A stretch of 64,000 bases of DNA from Pseudomonadota bacterium (GTDB lineage: Archaea; Thermoplasmatota; SW-10-69-26; JACQPN01; JAJPHT01): the NCBI GenBank assembly GCA_021325135.1, contig JAJPHT010000045.1, positions 32,001 to 96,000 on the forward strand, given 5' to 3'. Positions 31,792 through 37,896 of this stretch are shown here, in pieces (positions within the stretch are counted from its first letter, which is position 1; each line of letters starts with the position of its first letter). The notes beneath the pieces were generated by a model. That model saw only the letters and a program-made list of their open reading frames with translations. It did no database searches and was not told where the DNA came from. The translations under genes and the position numbers were made by a program.

Positions 31792-33339
31792 GTGAGGCTG
31801 TCCATCGTCGCCCTCGTCGCGCTCCTGCTCGCCCCCGGCGTGCTCGCCCTTCAGCCGCTCCCGCCCGCCGCGCCCCGCGTGGCCGGGGGCTTCACCGTCG
31901 CGCTGCTGGCGCCCGTCGCCGGCCCCACCGCGCTGGCCTTCGGGCCCGGCGGCCCGGACCTCTACGCGACGACGCTCACCGGCGACGTGCAGCGTGTGCC
32001 CCTGACGTGGACGCCCGCGGGCCCCGTCGCCTCGGGCGCGCCCTCCACGGTGGCCTCCGGCTTCGCGCAGCCCCTGGGCGTCGCCTTCGGCCCCGACGGC
32101 GCGATGTACGTCAGCGACTCGCACCTCAACCCCGCTTCGGGCCGCACCGACGGCTACGTCACGCGCATCGACCTCGCGGGCTCCCGCGTCGTGGTGGACG
32201 GCCTGCCCAACGGGCGCCACAACACCAACCACCTGCGCTTCGCCCCCGACGGCCGCCTCGCCATCGCCAACGGGAACTCCAACGACGACGGCGTGAGCGG
32301 CGGCTCCGCGGACGCCTTCCCCTACTCGGGCGCGCTCCTCACGGTGGACGCGGCGCAGGTCTCCGCGAGCCCGGCCATCCTCCGCTGGACCGACGCCAAC
32401 GGGAGCCCCCTGGACGCGGGCGCGGTCGCCGCCGACCCCGGCAACGCGGACTTCGCCTCCAAGGTGCAGGTCCTCGCCCACGGCTTCCGCAACGTGTTCG
32501 GCGTCGCGTGGTCCAGCGACGGCACGGCCTACACCGCGATGAACGGCCCCGACACGTTCCCGCAGGACGCGCAGGACGCGCTGTTCAAGGTCGCGCCCGG
32601 GACCGACTACCGCTACCCGTTCTGCTTCAACCAGGGCAGCGACGCGGGCACCGACGTCGCGACCGCCAACAACCCGCTCTTCCCCGGCGCGGACTGCGCG
32701 GGCATCCCCCACGCGACGGCGCTCCTGGGCTGGCACGTCTGCGCGACGGGGCTGGACGTCGCGCCCGCGGGCAGCGCGTTCGGCCGCGCCGCGTTCGTCG
32801 CCGAGTGCGGCCCCTTCTTCCCCGACCCGCAGGACCACGGCCTCTCCACGCAGGACACGGGGCACAAGGTCGCCCGCGTCGCGCTGGACGCCCACGGCGA
32901 CGCCACCGAGGTGGACGACTTCCTCACGGGCCTCGCGCTCCCCACCGACGCCCTCTTCGGGCCCGACGGCGCGCTCTACGTCGCGGACGCGGCCGGCGTC
33001 TACCGCGTCGCGCCCGTCCAGGCCCCCGCCGCCACCGTGACCGTCGAGGCCGTGGGCACGCAGTTCGCGCCCGCCGCGCTGGTGATTCCCGCCGGCACGA
33101 CGGTCCAGTGGCAGACGCCCGCCATCGCGCACACCGTGACCACCGCCGCGAGCCTGGACGACGCGCGCGCCGGGCACGGCAACGATCCGCTCAACCGCGA
33201 CGGGAACCCCGACACGTTCTCGCTGGGCCTCGCGCCCAACCAGGCGGCGACGCACACCTTCCTCACGCCGGGCACGTACTACTATTACTGCGCCTTCCAC
33301 GTGGGCGCCGGCATGGTGGGCGTCGTCGAGGTGGTGTAG
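31792..33339 (+). CDS. secreted PQQ-dependent sugar-dehydrogenase-like beta-propeller fused to a C-terminal cupredoxin
   Basis: Signal peptide; FGPDG repeats, GFRNVFG; type-1 Cu ligands HTVT and YCAFH..AGM. Confidence 0.8.
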   Translation: MRLSIVALVALLLAPGVLALQPLPPAAPRVAGGFTVALLAPVAGPTALAFGPGGPDLYATTLTGDVQRVPLTWTPAGPVASGAPSTVASGFAQPLGVAFGPDGAMYVSDSHLNPASGRTDGYVTRIDLAGSRVVVDGLPNGRHNTNHLRFAPDGRLAIANGNSNDDGVSGGSADAFPYSGALLTVDAAQVSASPAILRWTDANGSPLDAGAVAADPGNADFASKVQVLAHGFRNVFGVAWSSDGTAYTAMNGPDTFPQDAQDALFKVAPGTDYRYPFCFNQGSDAGTDVATANNPLFPGADCAGIPHATALLGWHVCATGLDVAPAGSAFGRAAFVAECGPFFPDPQDHGLSTQDTGHKVARVALDAHGDATEVDDFLTGLALPTDALFGPDGALYVADAAGVYRVAPVQAPAATVTVEAVGTQFAPAALVIPAGTTVQWQTPAIAHTVTTAASLDDARAGHGNDPLNRDGNPDTFSLGLAPNQAATHTFLTPGTYYYYCAFHVGAGMVGVVEVV

Positions 33340-33417: not shown

Positions 33418-33579
33418 ATGGCTCCCCCCACCGTCTCCGACATCGAGCGCCTCGATCGCGCTCCCTACGGCCGCTCCCTGGGCGTCCGAGCGGGCCCCGA
33501 GGCGGGCCCCGTGTGCACGAACATCTGCTCGCTCACCCCGGGCAGCATTCCCAACCTCTCGCGCAAGGTCTGCGGCTGA
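33418..33579 (+). CDS. RiPP (lanthipeptide) precursor peptide A1, 53 aa
   Basis: MAPPTVSDIERLDRAPYGRSLGVRAGPEAGPVCTNICSLTPGSIPNLSRKVCG; paralogue of the next ORF; upstream of kinase/lyase/LanC. Confidence 0.85.
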   Translation: MAPPTVSDIERLDRAPYGRSLGVRAGPEAGPVCTNICSLTPGSIPNLSRKVCG

Positions 33580-33588
33580 GGTGTGACC

Positions 33589-33741
33589 ATGGCCCCCACC
33601 GTCTCCGAGATCGAGAGGCTCGACCGCGCGCCCTACGCCCGCTCCCTGGGCGCCAAGGGCTCGGACGCCAAGATTCCGCCGTGCACGGGTGTGTGCTCGC
33701 TGACGCCCGGCAGCCTGCCCCTCTCGCGCACCATCTGCTGA
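33589..33741 (+). CDS. RiPP (lanthipeptide) precursor peptide A2, 50 aa
   Basis: Not in the ORF track. MAPTVSEIERLDRAPYARSLGAKGSDAKIPPCTGVCSLTPGSLPLSRTIC; RBS GAGGTG; stop 4 nt before the kinase ATG. Confidence 0.85.
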   Translation: MAPTVSEIERLDRAPYARSLGAKGSDAKIPPCTGVCSLTPGSLPLSRTIC

Positions 33742-33745
33742 CGCC

Positions 33746-34858
33746 ATGGACCGCGCGCCTCCGCGCCTCGCGCTCGAAGGCGTGCCCTCCTACCTTCTCC
33801 GCCGCGGCCTCGTGCCGCGGAGCACCCTCGTCCACGGCCCGCTCCGCGTCGAGGGGCGCTCCCGGCGCAACCGCAACTACAAGGTCCTCCTGCCGCGCGG
33901 CGGCCTCCTCGTGAAGCAGGCCGGCGACCCGCAGGACCCCGTCTGGCGCCGCGCGCTGCGCGCCGAGGCGGACGTGGTCCGCGTCCTCGCCTCGCACCCC
34001 CGCACGCGGCGCTGGACGCCCGGCTTCGTCCACCACGACGCGGGGCGCGCCATCCTCGTCACGCGGCTGCTGCGCCCCGCGACGACGCTGAGCAAGTACC
34101 ACCTCAACCTGGGCGACGTGCGCTTCCCCGCGGACGCCGCGCGCACCGCGGCGCGCGCCCTCGCCGCGGCGCACGCCGTGGGCGCCCGCGCCCTCGCCTC
34201 GGGCCGCCTCGCGGCGCCCCCGCGCAACCTGCCCGCCGCGTGGAAGCTCGCCGGCATCCCGGGCCTCCCGCCGCCCAAGCCCGGCGGGGCCGCGGACGCC
34301 GAGTACTTCCGTCTCCTGCGGCGCGAAGCGCCCTTCTACGCCCGCGTCCCGGGCCTCATGCGCGAATGGCTGGACGCGCGCGGCCTCGTCCACGGCGACG
34401 TGCGCTGGGACAACTACCTGGTCGGCGCCGGCGCCCGCGCGGAGGGCGAGCTGAACCTCCGCCTCGTGGACTGGGAGATGTGGGGGCAGGGCGACCCCGC
34501 GTGGGACGTCGCGTGCCACCTCGCCGAGCACGTCCGCTTCTGGTACGGCGCGGGGCTCCTCCACAACGCCGAGACCCTGGAGCAGATGCGGGAGCGCGTG
34601 CCCTTCCCCGTCTCCCGCGCCCACGAGGCGTGCCGCGCCTTCCTCGACGCCTACGCGCGCGAGGCCGCGACGCCCCGCGGCGCCCTCCTCGCCCGCGCGC
34701 TGGAGTACGCCCCCTTCTGCCTCGCGCTGGTGGGGTTCGAGAGCCTCCAGCGGCGCGACCAGATGCCCGCCGGCGCGCGCGTCGCCGTCGCGCTGGCCAA
34801 CGCCGCCGCGGAGGACCCCAAGGCCTACGCCCGCGAGTGGCTGGGGGTCGCGCCGTGA
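33746..34858 (+). CDS. APH-family kinase, LanK-like subunit of a class V-type dehydratase
   Basis: SRRNRNY..LLVKQ, HGDVRWDN catalytic loop, LVDWE..GDPAWD. Confidence 0.85.
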   Translation: MDRAPPRLALEGVPSYLLRRGLVPRSTLVHGPLRVEGRSRRNRNYKVLLPRGGLLVKQAGDPQDPVWRRALRAEADVVRVLASHPRTRRWTPGFVHHDAGRAILVTRLLRPATTLSKYHLNLGDVRFPADAARTAARALAAAHAVGARALASGRLAAPPRNLPAAWKLAGIPGLPPPKPGGAADAEYFRLLRREAPFYARVPGLMREWLDARGLVHGDVRWDNYLVGAGARAEGELNLRLVDWEMWGQGDPAWDVACHLAEHVRFWYGAGLLHNAETLEQMRERVPFPVSRAHEACRAFLDAYAREAATPRGALLARALEYAPFCLALVGFESLQRRDQMPAGARVAVALANAAAEDPKAYAREWLGVAP

Positions 34859-35703
34859 CGCTGGACGTGCCGCTGGACCTCGACGGCCCCGCGCAGGTCG
34901 CGCACCTCGCGCGTCGCGTCGCCATCCTCTCCCGGGACGAGTACGCCTGGGACGGCGAGCCGGAGCGCGTCGATCCCTCGCGCCTGCGCACGCCCGTCCG
35001 CACGCCGGAGCCCGTCGTCGCCGAGGTCGCCTCGCGCCTCTACCACGAGGCCTACGGGCGCCCCCACGACGGGCGCGGCGCCTACGCCCACCTGCCCGAC
35101 CAGGACCTGCGCCGCGCCTTCGCCGACGCGCTGCGCCGCCACGCCGCCATCGTGGACGACCTCCAGCCCGGCTGGATCCACGCCCGCGCGCCTGTGATAT
35201 CATCCTCCACGCCCCTCGTGCGCGTCTACTGGCACCTGGCGCCGCAGGGCGCCGCGCCGCTCCTCGCCGCCGCGACGCGGGCGCTCCGGAAGGCCAAGGC
35301 GGCGTTCATGCTGAAGCTCATGGACGACCCGCAGTCGTACCGCCGCGCGGACTCCGCCGTCCTCTACGTCCCCGCCGGAGAATGGCCCCGCGCCGCCGCC
35401 GCGCTGCCGCGCGTCCACGCCGCCGTGGCGCCCTACCTGCGCCGCGCGGCGCCCCTCTTCACGCTGCGGCTCGCGCCCGGCGTGGGGCTCGCGGAGGACC
35501 CGGGCGGCGACGAGAGCTTCGGCCTCCACCGCTCGCGCCTCGTGGCGGAGGGGCTCTTCGCGGCGCGCGGCGCGCAGGGCGACCCCGAGCGGCTGGCCAT
35601 CGTGCGCGGGCACCTGGCGCGCGCCGGCGTCGACCCCGACGCGCCGCACCTGAACGCGGGCACGCGGGAGATCCTCGCGCCGCGGCTGGAGGCGGCGCCG
35701 TGA
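34855..35703 (+). CDS. HopA1-family phosphoSer/Thr lyase, LanY-like
   Basis: VRVYW, FMLK, YRRADSAVLY, PLFT..LAPGVGLAEDP, SFGLHR; GTGA overlaps on both sides. Confidence 0.85.
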   Translation: MTLDVPLDLDGPAQVAHLARRVAILSRDEYAWDGEPERVDPSRLRTPVRTPEPVVAEVASRLYHEAYGRPHDGRGAYAHLPDQDLRRAFADALRRHAAIVDDLQPGWIHARAPVISSSTPLVRVYWHLAPQGAAPLLAAATRALRKAKAAFMLKLMDDPQSYRRADSAVLYVPAGEWPRAAAALPRVHAAVAPYLRRAAPLFTLRLAPGVGLAEDPGGDESFGLHRSRLVAEGLFAARGAQGDPERLAIVRGHLARAGVDPDAPHLNAGTREILAPRLEAAP

Positions 35704-36953
35704 GCCGCTTCCTCGACGAGGCCTCCGCCCTCGCGGACCGCCTTGCGGAGTCGGCGACGTGGGACGGCGCGTGCGCGACGTGGCTCGCGCGCGCCATCCC
35801 TCCCGGCGAGGACCCCGAAGGCCCCGAGGCGCATCCCGAGCTGGTCGGGCTGGACGCGACCGTCTACCGCGGCACGGCCGGCGTCGCGCTGGTCCTCGCG
35901 CGCGTCGCGGCCCGCACCGGCGAGCGCGCGCACCGCCGCGCGGCGCGGGGCGCCATGGAGCACGCCCTCCGCCACGCGCGCGGCCCCGGCTCGGAGGGCG
36001 AGCCCGTGGGCGCGGAGTGGCGCCTCTCGTTCCTCATGGGGAGCCTGGGCGTCGCGTGGGCCGGCCACGAGGTGGGGCTGCTCCTCGACGACGCCGCGCT
36101 CTCCCGCCGCGGGCTGCGCCTCGCCGCGGCGCTCGTCCGCGACGGCGCGCCGGGCCCCGAGGTCGACGTCATGTTCGGCGCCGGGAGCGGCATCCCGACG
36201 CTCCTGGACCTGGGCGCGCGCGGCGTGCGCGGCGCGCCCGAGCTGGCGGCCCGCCTGGGCGACGCGGCCCTTGCGGCGGGGCGCTCCGAGCGCGGCGGGC
36301 TCGCCTGGAGGGACGGCCTCACGGGCTACAGCCACGGCGCGGCCGGCGTGGGGTCGGCCCTCGCGGCCCTCGCCGCGCGCACGGACGCGGAGCGGCACCG
36401 CGCGGGCGCCCGCGCCGCGTTCGCCTACGAGCGCGCGCTCTTCCAGCCCCGCGACGCCAACTGGCCCGACCTCAAGGCCAAGCCCCGCGCCGACGGCTCG
36501 TGGCCCTGCGAGGCGAACTGGTGCCACGGCGCGCCGGGCATCGGCCTCTCGCGCGCCCTCGCGCTCCCCCGCCTCAAGGACCCGGCGCTCCTCGACGAGG
36601 CGCGCGTCGCCCTCGCCACCACCGTCGCGCGCCTGAGGGATGACGCGCAGGAGCCGGGCCGCGACTTCACGCTCTGCCACGGGGTGGCGGGCCGCGCCGC
36701 GTGCGCGCTGCGGATCGGCCACGCCGTGGGGGGCGACGCGGGGCGCTCCGCCGCGCGGGAGGTGGTGGGCGCCGCCGTCGAGGCGTTCGGCGCGCGCGCC
36801 CGCCAGCGATGGGGAGAGGCCACCGATTGGCCCAACCCCCTGCCCGCGGGGCTCCACCCCTCGCTTTTCCTTGGGGCGGCGGGGATCGCGCACCTGTTCC
36901 TGGAGCTTGACGACCCCCGGCTGCCGGGCGTCGTCGCGCCGCCGGGCGCGTAG
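35700..36953 (+). CDS. lanC: stand-alone lanthionine cyclase, LanC-like
   Basis: YRGTAG, GYSHGAAG, NWPD, WCHGAPG, LCHG (Zn ligands Cys/Cys/His), SLFLGAAG. Confidence 0.9.
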   Translation: MSRFLDEASALADRLAESATWDGACATWLARAIPPGEDPEGPEAHPELVGLDATVYRGTAGVALVLARVAARTGERAHRRAARGAMEHALRHARGPGSEGEPVGAEWRLSFLMGSLGVAWAGHEVGLLLDDAALSRRGLRLAAALVRDGAPGPEVDVMFGAGSGIPTLLDLGARGVRGAPELAARLGDAALAAGRSERGGLAWRDGLTGYSHGAAGVGSALAALAARTDAERHRAGARAAFAYERALFQPRDANWPDLKAKPRADGSWPCEANWCHGAPGIGLSRALALPRLKDPALLDEARVALATTVARLRDDAQEPGRDFTLCHGVAGRAACALRIGHAVGGDAGRSAAREVVGAAVEAFGARARQRWGEATDWPNPLPAGLHPSLFLGAAGIAHLFLELDDPRLPGVVAPPGA

Positions 36954-37308: not shown

Positions 37309-37896
37309 GTGCCCGGCGTGGACGCGCGGGACGCCTGGCGCCGCAAGCACGCCCGGGAGGCGGCGCCCTGGCGGGGGCCCGTCCACGCCGCGCCCCTGCT
37401 GGCGGGCCTCTCCGGCCGCGTGGTGGAGCTCGGCGCGGGCGGGGGGAAGGTGGCCGGCGCGCTGCCGGCGGAGAGCGTCGCCCTGGACTGGGCGCCGGAG
37501 GGGCTCCGCGACGCGGGGCGCCCCCGCCTGGTCGCGGACGCGCGCGCCCTCCCCTTCCGCGACGGCTCGCTGGACGCGCTGGTGGCCATCCACGTCCTGG
37601 GCCACCTCGCCGCGGCCGACCGCCCGCGCGCGCTGGCGGGGTGGGCCCGCGCGCTGCGCCCCGGCGGCGCGCTCGTGCTGGAGGTCTTCGCCCGCGGCGA
37701 CGCCCGCGAAGGGGAGGGGCGCGAGGTGGAGCCGGGCACGTGGGAGCGCGGCGGCGTCGCGACGCACCACTTCTCCGAGGCCGAGCTTCGCGCGCTGCTG
37801 GCCGGGTGGCGCGGGGACCTCCTTGTGGAGGAGCGCCGCCTGAGGTGGGGGACCCGGCGGGCGCTGCGGGGCCGCTTCACCCGTCCCGCGCCTTGA
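37309..37896 (+). CDS. class I SAM-dependent methyltransferase
   Basis: VVELGAGGGK, ADARALPFRDGSLD, LRPGG. Confidence 0.8.
   Translation: MPGVDARDAWRRKHAREAAPWRGPVHAAPLLAGLSGRVVELGAGGGKVAGALPAESVALDWAPEGLRDAGRPRLVADARALPFRDGSLDALVAIHVLGHLAAADRPRALAGWARALRPGGALVLEVFARGDAREGEGREVEPGTWERGGVATHHFSEAELRALLAGWRGDLLVEERRLRWGTRRALRGRFTRPAP

Follow-up and report, generated by a model that had tools for sequence, protein, structure and literature searches.

A candidate class Vb lanthipeptide cluster with a shortened lyase in a Thermoplasmatota archaeon

Class V lanthipeptides have been described from bacteria (PMC8153245, PMC12328550). Does an archaeon make them too? The question is raised by five genes in a stretch of 64,000 nucleotides (the window; positions 32,001 to 96,000 of contig JAJPHT010000045.1, assembly GCA_021325135.1), in which an earlier note, made from the sequence, had seen a lanthipeptide cluster with a kinase, a HopA1-type lyase and a stand-alone cyclase. 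The five open reading frames (ORFs) are:

33418..33579, + strand: precursor A1, 53 amino acids (aa); leader DIERLD motif at residues 8-13; core Cys33, 37 and 52 plus Thr34, Ser38, Thr40, Ser43 and Ser48
33589..33741, + strand: precursor A2, 50 aa; A1 paralogue, 65% identical; Cys32, 36 and 50 plus six core Ser/Thr
33746..34858, + strand: LanK, predicted Ser/Thr kinase of the APH fold, 370 aa; K57, E74, H216, D218, N223 and D242; PATTL at 111-115 (modelled leader-docking site)
34855..35703, + strand: LanY, predicted phospho-Ser/Thr lyase of the HopA1 family, 282 aa; R123, K154, R164 and Y171; in-frame loss of ~50 residues (corresponding to 104-160 of LxmY)
35700..36953, + strand: LanC, predicted stand-alone zinc cyclase, 417 aa; D156, H212 and W274; zinc ligands C275, C326 and H327

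We consider it very likely that this is a class Vb cluster of a Thermoplasmatota-specific branch, in which LanK, LanY and LanC would modify A1 and A2 to thioether peptides, with protease and export supplied from outside.

Gene content and class

The genes are co-oriented, with gaps of 9 and 4 nt and then two GTGA overlaps, and they carry the kinase, HopA1 and LanC motifs, all as the earlier note had described. The three enzymes scored above the cut-offs of their profile hidden Markov models: 41.5 bits for APH (PF01636, cut-off 23.2), 115.7 bits for HopA1 (PF17914) and 122.3 bits for LANC_like. The cluster has a stand-alone LanK, a stand-alone LanY with the catalytic Arg/Lys/Arg/Tyr, a dedicated LanC with zinc ligands, and precursors with a conserved leader and a Cys/Ser/Thr core. 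No LanD flavoprotein and no LanX, as expected for class Va, was found among the cluster genes and their neighbours, and LanC is present. No cluster gene matched the LanB of class I, the dehydratase being the LanK/LanY pair, and the cluster has no fused LanM dehydratase-cyclase of class II. Judged by sequence, it belongs to class Vb by every gene-level criterion testable.

Families and residues bear out the split LanK/LanY dehydratase with a zinc cyclase, two substrates and no LanD or LanX that had been proposed. The architecture is not a novel hybrid, as the note had supposed, because LanK, LanY and LanC without LanD or LanX make up the named class Vb (PMC12291118), already reconstituted for SmoA (PMC12328550, PMC12291118, PMC11186320). 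Nor is the trio new. It was noted bioinformatically in 2021 (PMC8153245): of 1,340 bacterial HopA1 proteins, 20% have a LanC nearby or in the same polypeptide (Eyles 2021). In our synteny search, the majority of ~70 bacterial loci had the trio or a LanY fused to LanC (Actinomycetota, Pseudomonadota, Acidobacteriota, Planctomycetota and others), and most share the K-Y-C gene order. The three-enzyme chemistry itself is not new; the archaeal branch, which has a leader signal of its own and a shortened lyase, appears to be undescribed. The expectation of an uncharacterised product held. Nine bacterial loci (L016, L018, L030, L032, L034, L036, L041, L045, L048) have long single ORFs matching LanY and LanC, which are probable fusions (as in PMC8153245).

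The host genome (G000) has four K-Y-C clusters (C42, that of the window, C7, C39 and C50) with 11 precursors in total, and a congener (G002, same genus) has two. We found HopA1 in 5 of 401 sampled genomes of the phylum: the host, the congener, and three genera of one family outside the host class. The remaining 19 genomes of the host class, many of them incomplete, gave no HopA1 match. Nine kinases from the five Thermoplasmatota genomes formed one side of a branch among the bacterial class Vb kinases, with a support of 100 (SH-aLRT; all tree supports are SH-aLRT or SH-like only). With metagenomic homologues this clade has 22 members. In the metagenomic clade contigs that were read, the flanking genes usually have homologues in the host genome, from which we infer that these members are archaeal too. 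The cyclases group as the kinases do (support 99), and the lyase tree is less resolved. The simplest reading of these trees would be one acquisition, followed by duplication and loss.

Precursors and enzymes

A1 and A2 had no match in Pfam or NCBIfam, and A1 had no usable match in the ESM Atlas. They are 65% identical with mostly synonymous differences (4 of 6 nucleotide differences in a 60-nt leader repeat, 3 of 3 in the CSLTPGS core), and at a sister-kinase locus (L138) three precursors with the same core stand ahead of the kinase. For these reasons we take A1 and A2, by their sequence behavior, to be coding sequences rather than chance ORFs. Unmodified, they have calculated monoisotopic masses of 5477.8 and 5184.7 Da. 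The leader pattern D-I-E-x-L-E/D, or DIE(R)L(E/D), occurs in 36 of 37 clade precursors, usually with NTS next. Across five same-core precursors from two organisms (A1, A2 and the three from L138), C33, T34, C37, S38, L39, T40, P41, G42, S43 and C52 are invariant, and all five have a Ser/Thr at -4 from the last Cys. A likeness of SLTPG to rings A/B of nisin was rejected, the Pro-Gly having no following Cys. In eight proteobacterial class Vb loci (L039, L040, L042, L044, L046, L051, L053, L058) the precursors, of ~80 aa and upstream of the kinase, have repeated C-x-x-V-x-F-T-A-G-C units and no obvious separate leader.

The six catalytic residues of LanK listed above are invariant in 28 homologues, and a profile search of the PDB gave LxmK (9DK1_A) as first match. 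A model of the LanK-A1 complex reached an ipSAE (interface score) of 0.85, the best of three controls reaching 0.00. Of 80 solved complexes, 58 come up to the mark used, as do 2 of 110 mismatched pairs, figures that apply only roughly here (own alignments). Model runs agreed in at least 51% of contacts, with a predicted local distance difference test score (pLDDT) of at least 55 for the partner. In the model, leader residues I9, L12 and D13 of A1 contact kinase residues 111-122 and 226-228. The PATTL motif lies within this interface; 19 of 22 clade kinases have it, against none of 67 other kinases. The model thus supports docking of the DIERL leader on the clade-specific PATTL of LanK, and agrees with the leader binding to the kinase predicted for CaoK (PMC9486802) and LxmK (PMC12141560). 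The solved LxmKY entries in the PDB are titled apo or nucleotide-bound.

In LanY, the residues R123, K154, R164 and Y171 are invariant in 24 sequences, and their spacing of 31/10/7 is close to the 32/10/7 of R187, K219, R229 and Y236 in CaoY (PMC9486802). The LanY model (pLDDT 93.3) matched LxmY (9DK3_B) with a Z score of 23.4 and an rmsd of 2.8 over 236 residues. In the window LanY, 5 residues separate the N-terminal helices from the PGW motif, compared with 50-66 in full-length LanY. The absent segment aligns with LxmY 104-160, a subdomain forming part of the main interface with the kinase in LxmKY (PMC12141560), and it matches the interface predicted for CaoY (PMC9486802).

Several points weigh against a working class Vb pathway. 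LanK scored 63.8 bits against NF038156 (LxmK), under the equivalog cut-off of 315. No protease or transporter was found within the cluster. Since LanY lacks a subdomain that is part of the main LanK-LanY interface of LxmKY and CaoKY, dehydration could be impaired.

The last point bears on an alternative that we judge unlikely: the window copy would be decaying or dependent, with a short LanY that cannot partner LanK, and its peptides would stop phosphorylated or need the LanY of C39 in trans. The lost segment does carry the LxmY interface residues V132 and V136, but the deletion keeps the reading frame, no catalytic residue is missing, and the short protein models confidently as an LxmY fold. 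LxmY aggregates without LxmK (PMC12141560), and the segment is kept in the sister lyase at L138 and at C39, the one full-length LanY of the host genome. On the other side, three of the four copies in the host genome (window, C7 and C50) and one in the congener, the C50 orthologue, lack the segment, and the orthologous pair is 64% identical with motifs intact. Lyases at L086 and L142 are partly short. The segment was lost at least twice, and four or five times by parsimony (in trees built without the deleted columns), and the Pseudomonas HopA1 structures are likewise short, with 255-257 residues. The repeated in-frame loss with an intact active site argues that the subdomain is dispensable, although dependence on the C39 lyase is an alternative to be taken seriously.

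LanC modelled as a LanC barrel (pLDDT 94.0), with LanCL2, LanCL1, LicM2 and CuvL as top fold matches. It retains H212 and the zinc set C275/C326/H327, whose roles are assigned by analogy with NisC. The earlier note had called it a class I-type cyclase. It is indeed stand-alone, but its sequence is far closer to LanM cyclases: 114.9 bits with the LicM2 cyclase domain against 33.2 bits with NisC. The 417-aa ORF matched the LanM model TIGR03897 at positions 548-932 only, with 171 bits, under the cut-off of 304.

Eukaryotic LanCL proteins add glutathione to dehydroalanine and dehydrobutyrine (Dha/Dhb). It is accordingly conceivable, if quite improbable, that the product is no lanthionine: LanC would add an external thiol to Dha/Dhb, or the Cys would be engaged in disulfides or in metal binding, and the result would be a dehydro-peptide or a metallothionein-like product. 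Human LanCL1/2 are among the top fold matches, yet by sequence the LicM2 cyclase domain is the closest solved protein, by 60 bits. Cysteine is extremely abundant in many clade precursors (up to 21 residues), but Cys and Ser/Thr are co-conserved at ring-like spacing, and the homologous bacterial system yields lanthionines.

For the class Vb pathway we propose the following steps. LanK would bind the leader, its PATTL strand and residues 226-230 receiving the DIERL helix, and phosphorylate core Ser/Thr using ATP. LanY would eliminate the phosphate to give Dha/Dhb, up to five in A1 and six in A2. LanC would activate the three Cys on zinc and add them to the dehydro residues. Because there are three Cys, at most three thioether rings are expected. 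Core conservation and mSmoA point to two close or overlapping N-terminal rings (C-T-x-x-C-S) and, at the C terminus, a lanthionine between Ser(i) and Cys(i+4), some Dha/Dhb being left over, as the most likely pattern. As LanD and LanX are absent, no aminovinylcysteine would be formed.

Host, sister clusters and maturation

The host is a Thermoplasmatota archaeon, non-halophilic as the earlier note had inferred; that the contig is archaeal follows from an archaeal-type DnaG encoded in the window (NF003108, 523 bits). In the likely source run, one contig linked the upstream gene to kinase and lyase and a second linked lyase and cyclase to the downstream genes, both without differences and at a depth of ~22. 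A second study, of a mine metagenome, contained short pieces of the cluster and its flanks, nearly all identical and at similarly low depth. It is highly improbable that bacterial DNA was wrongly assembled or binned into an archaeal genome here: the genome is metagenome-assembled with 5.57% contamination and the enzymes have relatives in bacteria, but the 132-kb contig also carries the archaeal DnaG, both flanks are bridged at even depth, the G + C content at third codon positions of the enzyme genes (0.97-0.98) equals the genome median, and five Thermoplasmatota genomes have members of the clade. A very recent transfer is likewise unlikely.

No sigma-70 promoter site was found upstream of the cluster. 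With a BRE/TATA (archaeal promoter element) matrix learned from the host genome, the best upstream site scored 7.3 at an atypical position, and 4.7% of coding controls scored as high. The neighbours are a dehydrogenase-cupredoxin, a short-chain dehydrogenase/reductase (SDR), a methyltransferase and a PAS protein, and there is a single APH. The first (31792-33339) is a secreted-looking propeller of the glucose/sorbosone dehydrogenase type fused to a C-terminal cupredoxin, co-oriented and 78 nt upstream of A1. It was rejected as part of the cluster, not being found beside other clade clusters, as was the downstream methyltransferase (37309-37896), which is 355 nt distant and likewise not beside them.

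The sister clusters are varied. That of C39 (L002:6233-15169, G000:C39:72232-81168) combines two luciferase-like oxidoreductases and an M50 peptidase with a LanY of full length and six precursors, each with 4-16 Cys, and is followed by five small secreted Cys-rich ORFs. By analogy with lexapeptide, the two oxidoreductases could make D-amino acids by reduction of Dha/Dhb. The clusters of C50 (L003:7358-10673) and G002:C89 (L011:5710-9103) are orthologous; their precursors, two and four in number, are very short, and one is encoded on the other strand. Their LanC has Cys-Cys-Gly in place of Cys-His-Gly, reminiscent of the three-Cys zinc site of ProcM. The cluster of C7 (L001:6312-9663) has one 83-aa precursor with two CTAxCS cores behind a single leader.

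Outside these genomes, L141:4073-18200 has a clade K-Y-C trio beside YcaO, four 2-oxoglutarate-Fe(II) oxygenases and four JmjC/cupin genes. Its two leader-bearing peptides have a single Cys each, pointing to a much more decorated ribosomal peptide. The same leader is found on repetitive precursors of great length (up to 207 aa, 18-21 Cys) at L144:8194-9799, L148:5633-6178 and L149:4112-11618, the last two loci belonging to Thermoplasmatota genomes of another class. In a Candidatus Nitrosocosmicus genome (32% G + C), a LanK and a cut LanY lie where a contig ends (L027:3978-5823); no LanC was found in that genome. This kinase is outside the clade in the trees, with a p of 0.35 in the approximately unbiased (AU) test for an origin shared with the clade, and is a possible second archaeal occurrence.

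Leader removal and export would come from outside the window cluster. An M50-type membrane peptidase (HExxH) was found at ten distinct clade loci and, within the flanks fetched, at none of the bacterial loci. The host genome has one copy, at C39, which is the best candidate for the leader protease; since the leaders are shared, it is plausible that it acts in trans on the window peptides. A secreted peptide serving in competition or signalling is the probable product.

A wider reading, which we hold tentatively, would make this the first archaeal class V system. It would stem from one old acquisition in Thermoplasmatota that radiated into a prochlorosin-like library (at least 37 precursors of 32-207 aa with 1-21 Cys), with one leader code, a shared M50 peptidase and a minimal LanY without the kinase-docking subdomain, dehydration being organised by a leader-bound LanK and not by a fixed LanKY cavity. 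A leader common to such different cores would be useful in peptide engineering.

Comparison with known systems

The HopA1/phosphotransferase clusters with LanC or HopA1-LanC fusions (PMC8153245) have the same trio and predicted lanthionines, and are from bacterial phyla; three of the supplements, examined as text, contain no archaeal term. No report of class V in archaea was found in the literature, most subscription papers being outside our coverage, so that absence from the literature is unproven.

Lexapeptide (LxmKY, PDB 9DK1-3) and cacaoidin (CaoKY, PMC9486802), of class Va, share with the window cluster the kinase-lyase dehydration, the predicted leader-kinase binding and the spacing of the lyase catalytic residues, and LxmY is the closest solved fold to the window LanY. 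They need LanD and LanX for aminovinylmethylcysteine and have no LanC, the opposite of the window cluster. LxmY also has the 104-160 subdomain, which the window LanY lacks, and the type-A leader (Tyr-17, Ala-Pro) is not that of A1 and A2. The natural lyase deletion directly tests the need for the lexapeptide-type LanKY interface.

Archaeal lanthipeptides in surveys of up to 11,644 genomes were of class II and from haloarchaea (PMC12144867), and no class V entry was found in the part of the supplement examined. Of 50 archaeal clusters, 48 were class II and two were not (PMC10105419). These archalans (PMC10105419, PMC12144867) are also archaeal, and the window LanC resembles LanM cyclase domains. 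They differ in having one fused LanM with a dehydratase unrelated to the LanK/LanY pair, a Kx(Y/F)(D/E)xx(F/Y) leader, and hosts among haloarchaea only. The window cluster would thus be a second archaeal lanthipeptide route, unrelated to class II, in uncultured non-halophilic Thermoplasmatota.

The closest parallel is SmoA/SmoK/SmoY/SmoC, compared here by its published description. Both systems have a stand-alone LanK (PF01636), LanY (PF17914) and LanC, and no LanD or LanX. The product mSmoA, the type member of class Vb, was produced with SmoC, and leaving SmoC out changes the ring pattern (PMC12328550); its rings are all (methyl)lanthionines, and the two overlapping rings and C-terminal lanthionine (PMC11186320) fit the three-Cys cores of the window precursors. 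The window cluster differs in its archaeal host, its separate PATTL kinase clade, its DIE(R)L(E/D) leader, a lyase that is ~50 residues shorter, and a host genome with four clusters and 11 precursors. Because a single member of class Vb had been characterised as of 2024 (PMC11186320), this three-enzyme, 3.5-kb cluster with short substrates offers an easy second test of whether LanC dictates the ring pattern.

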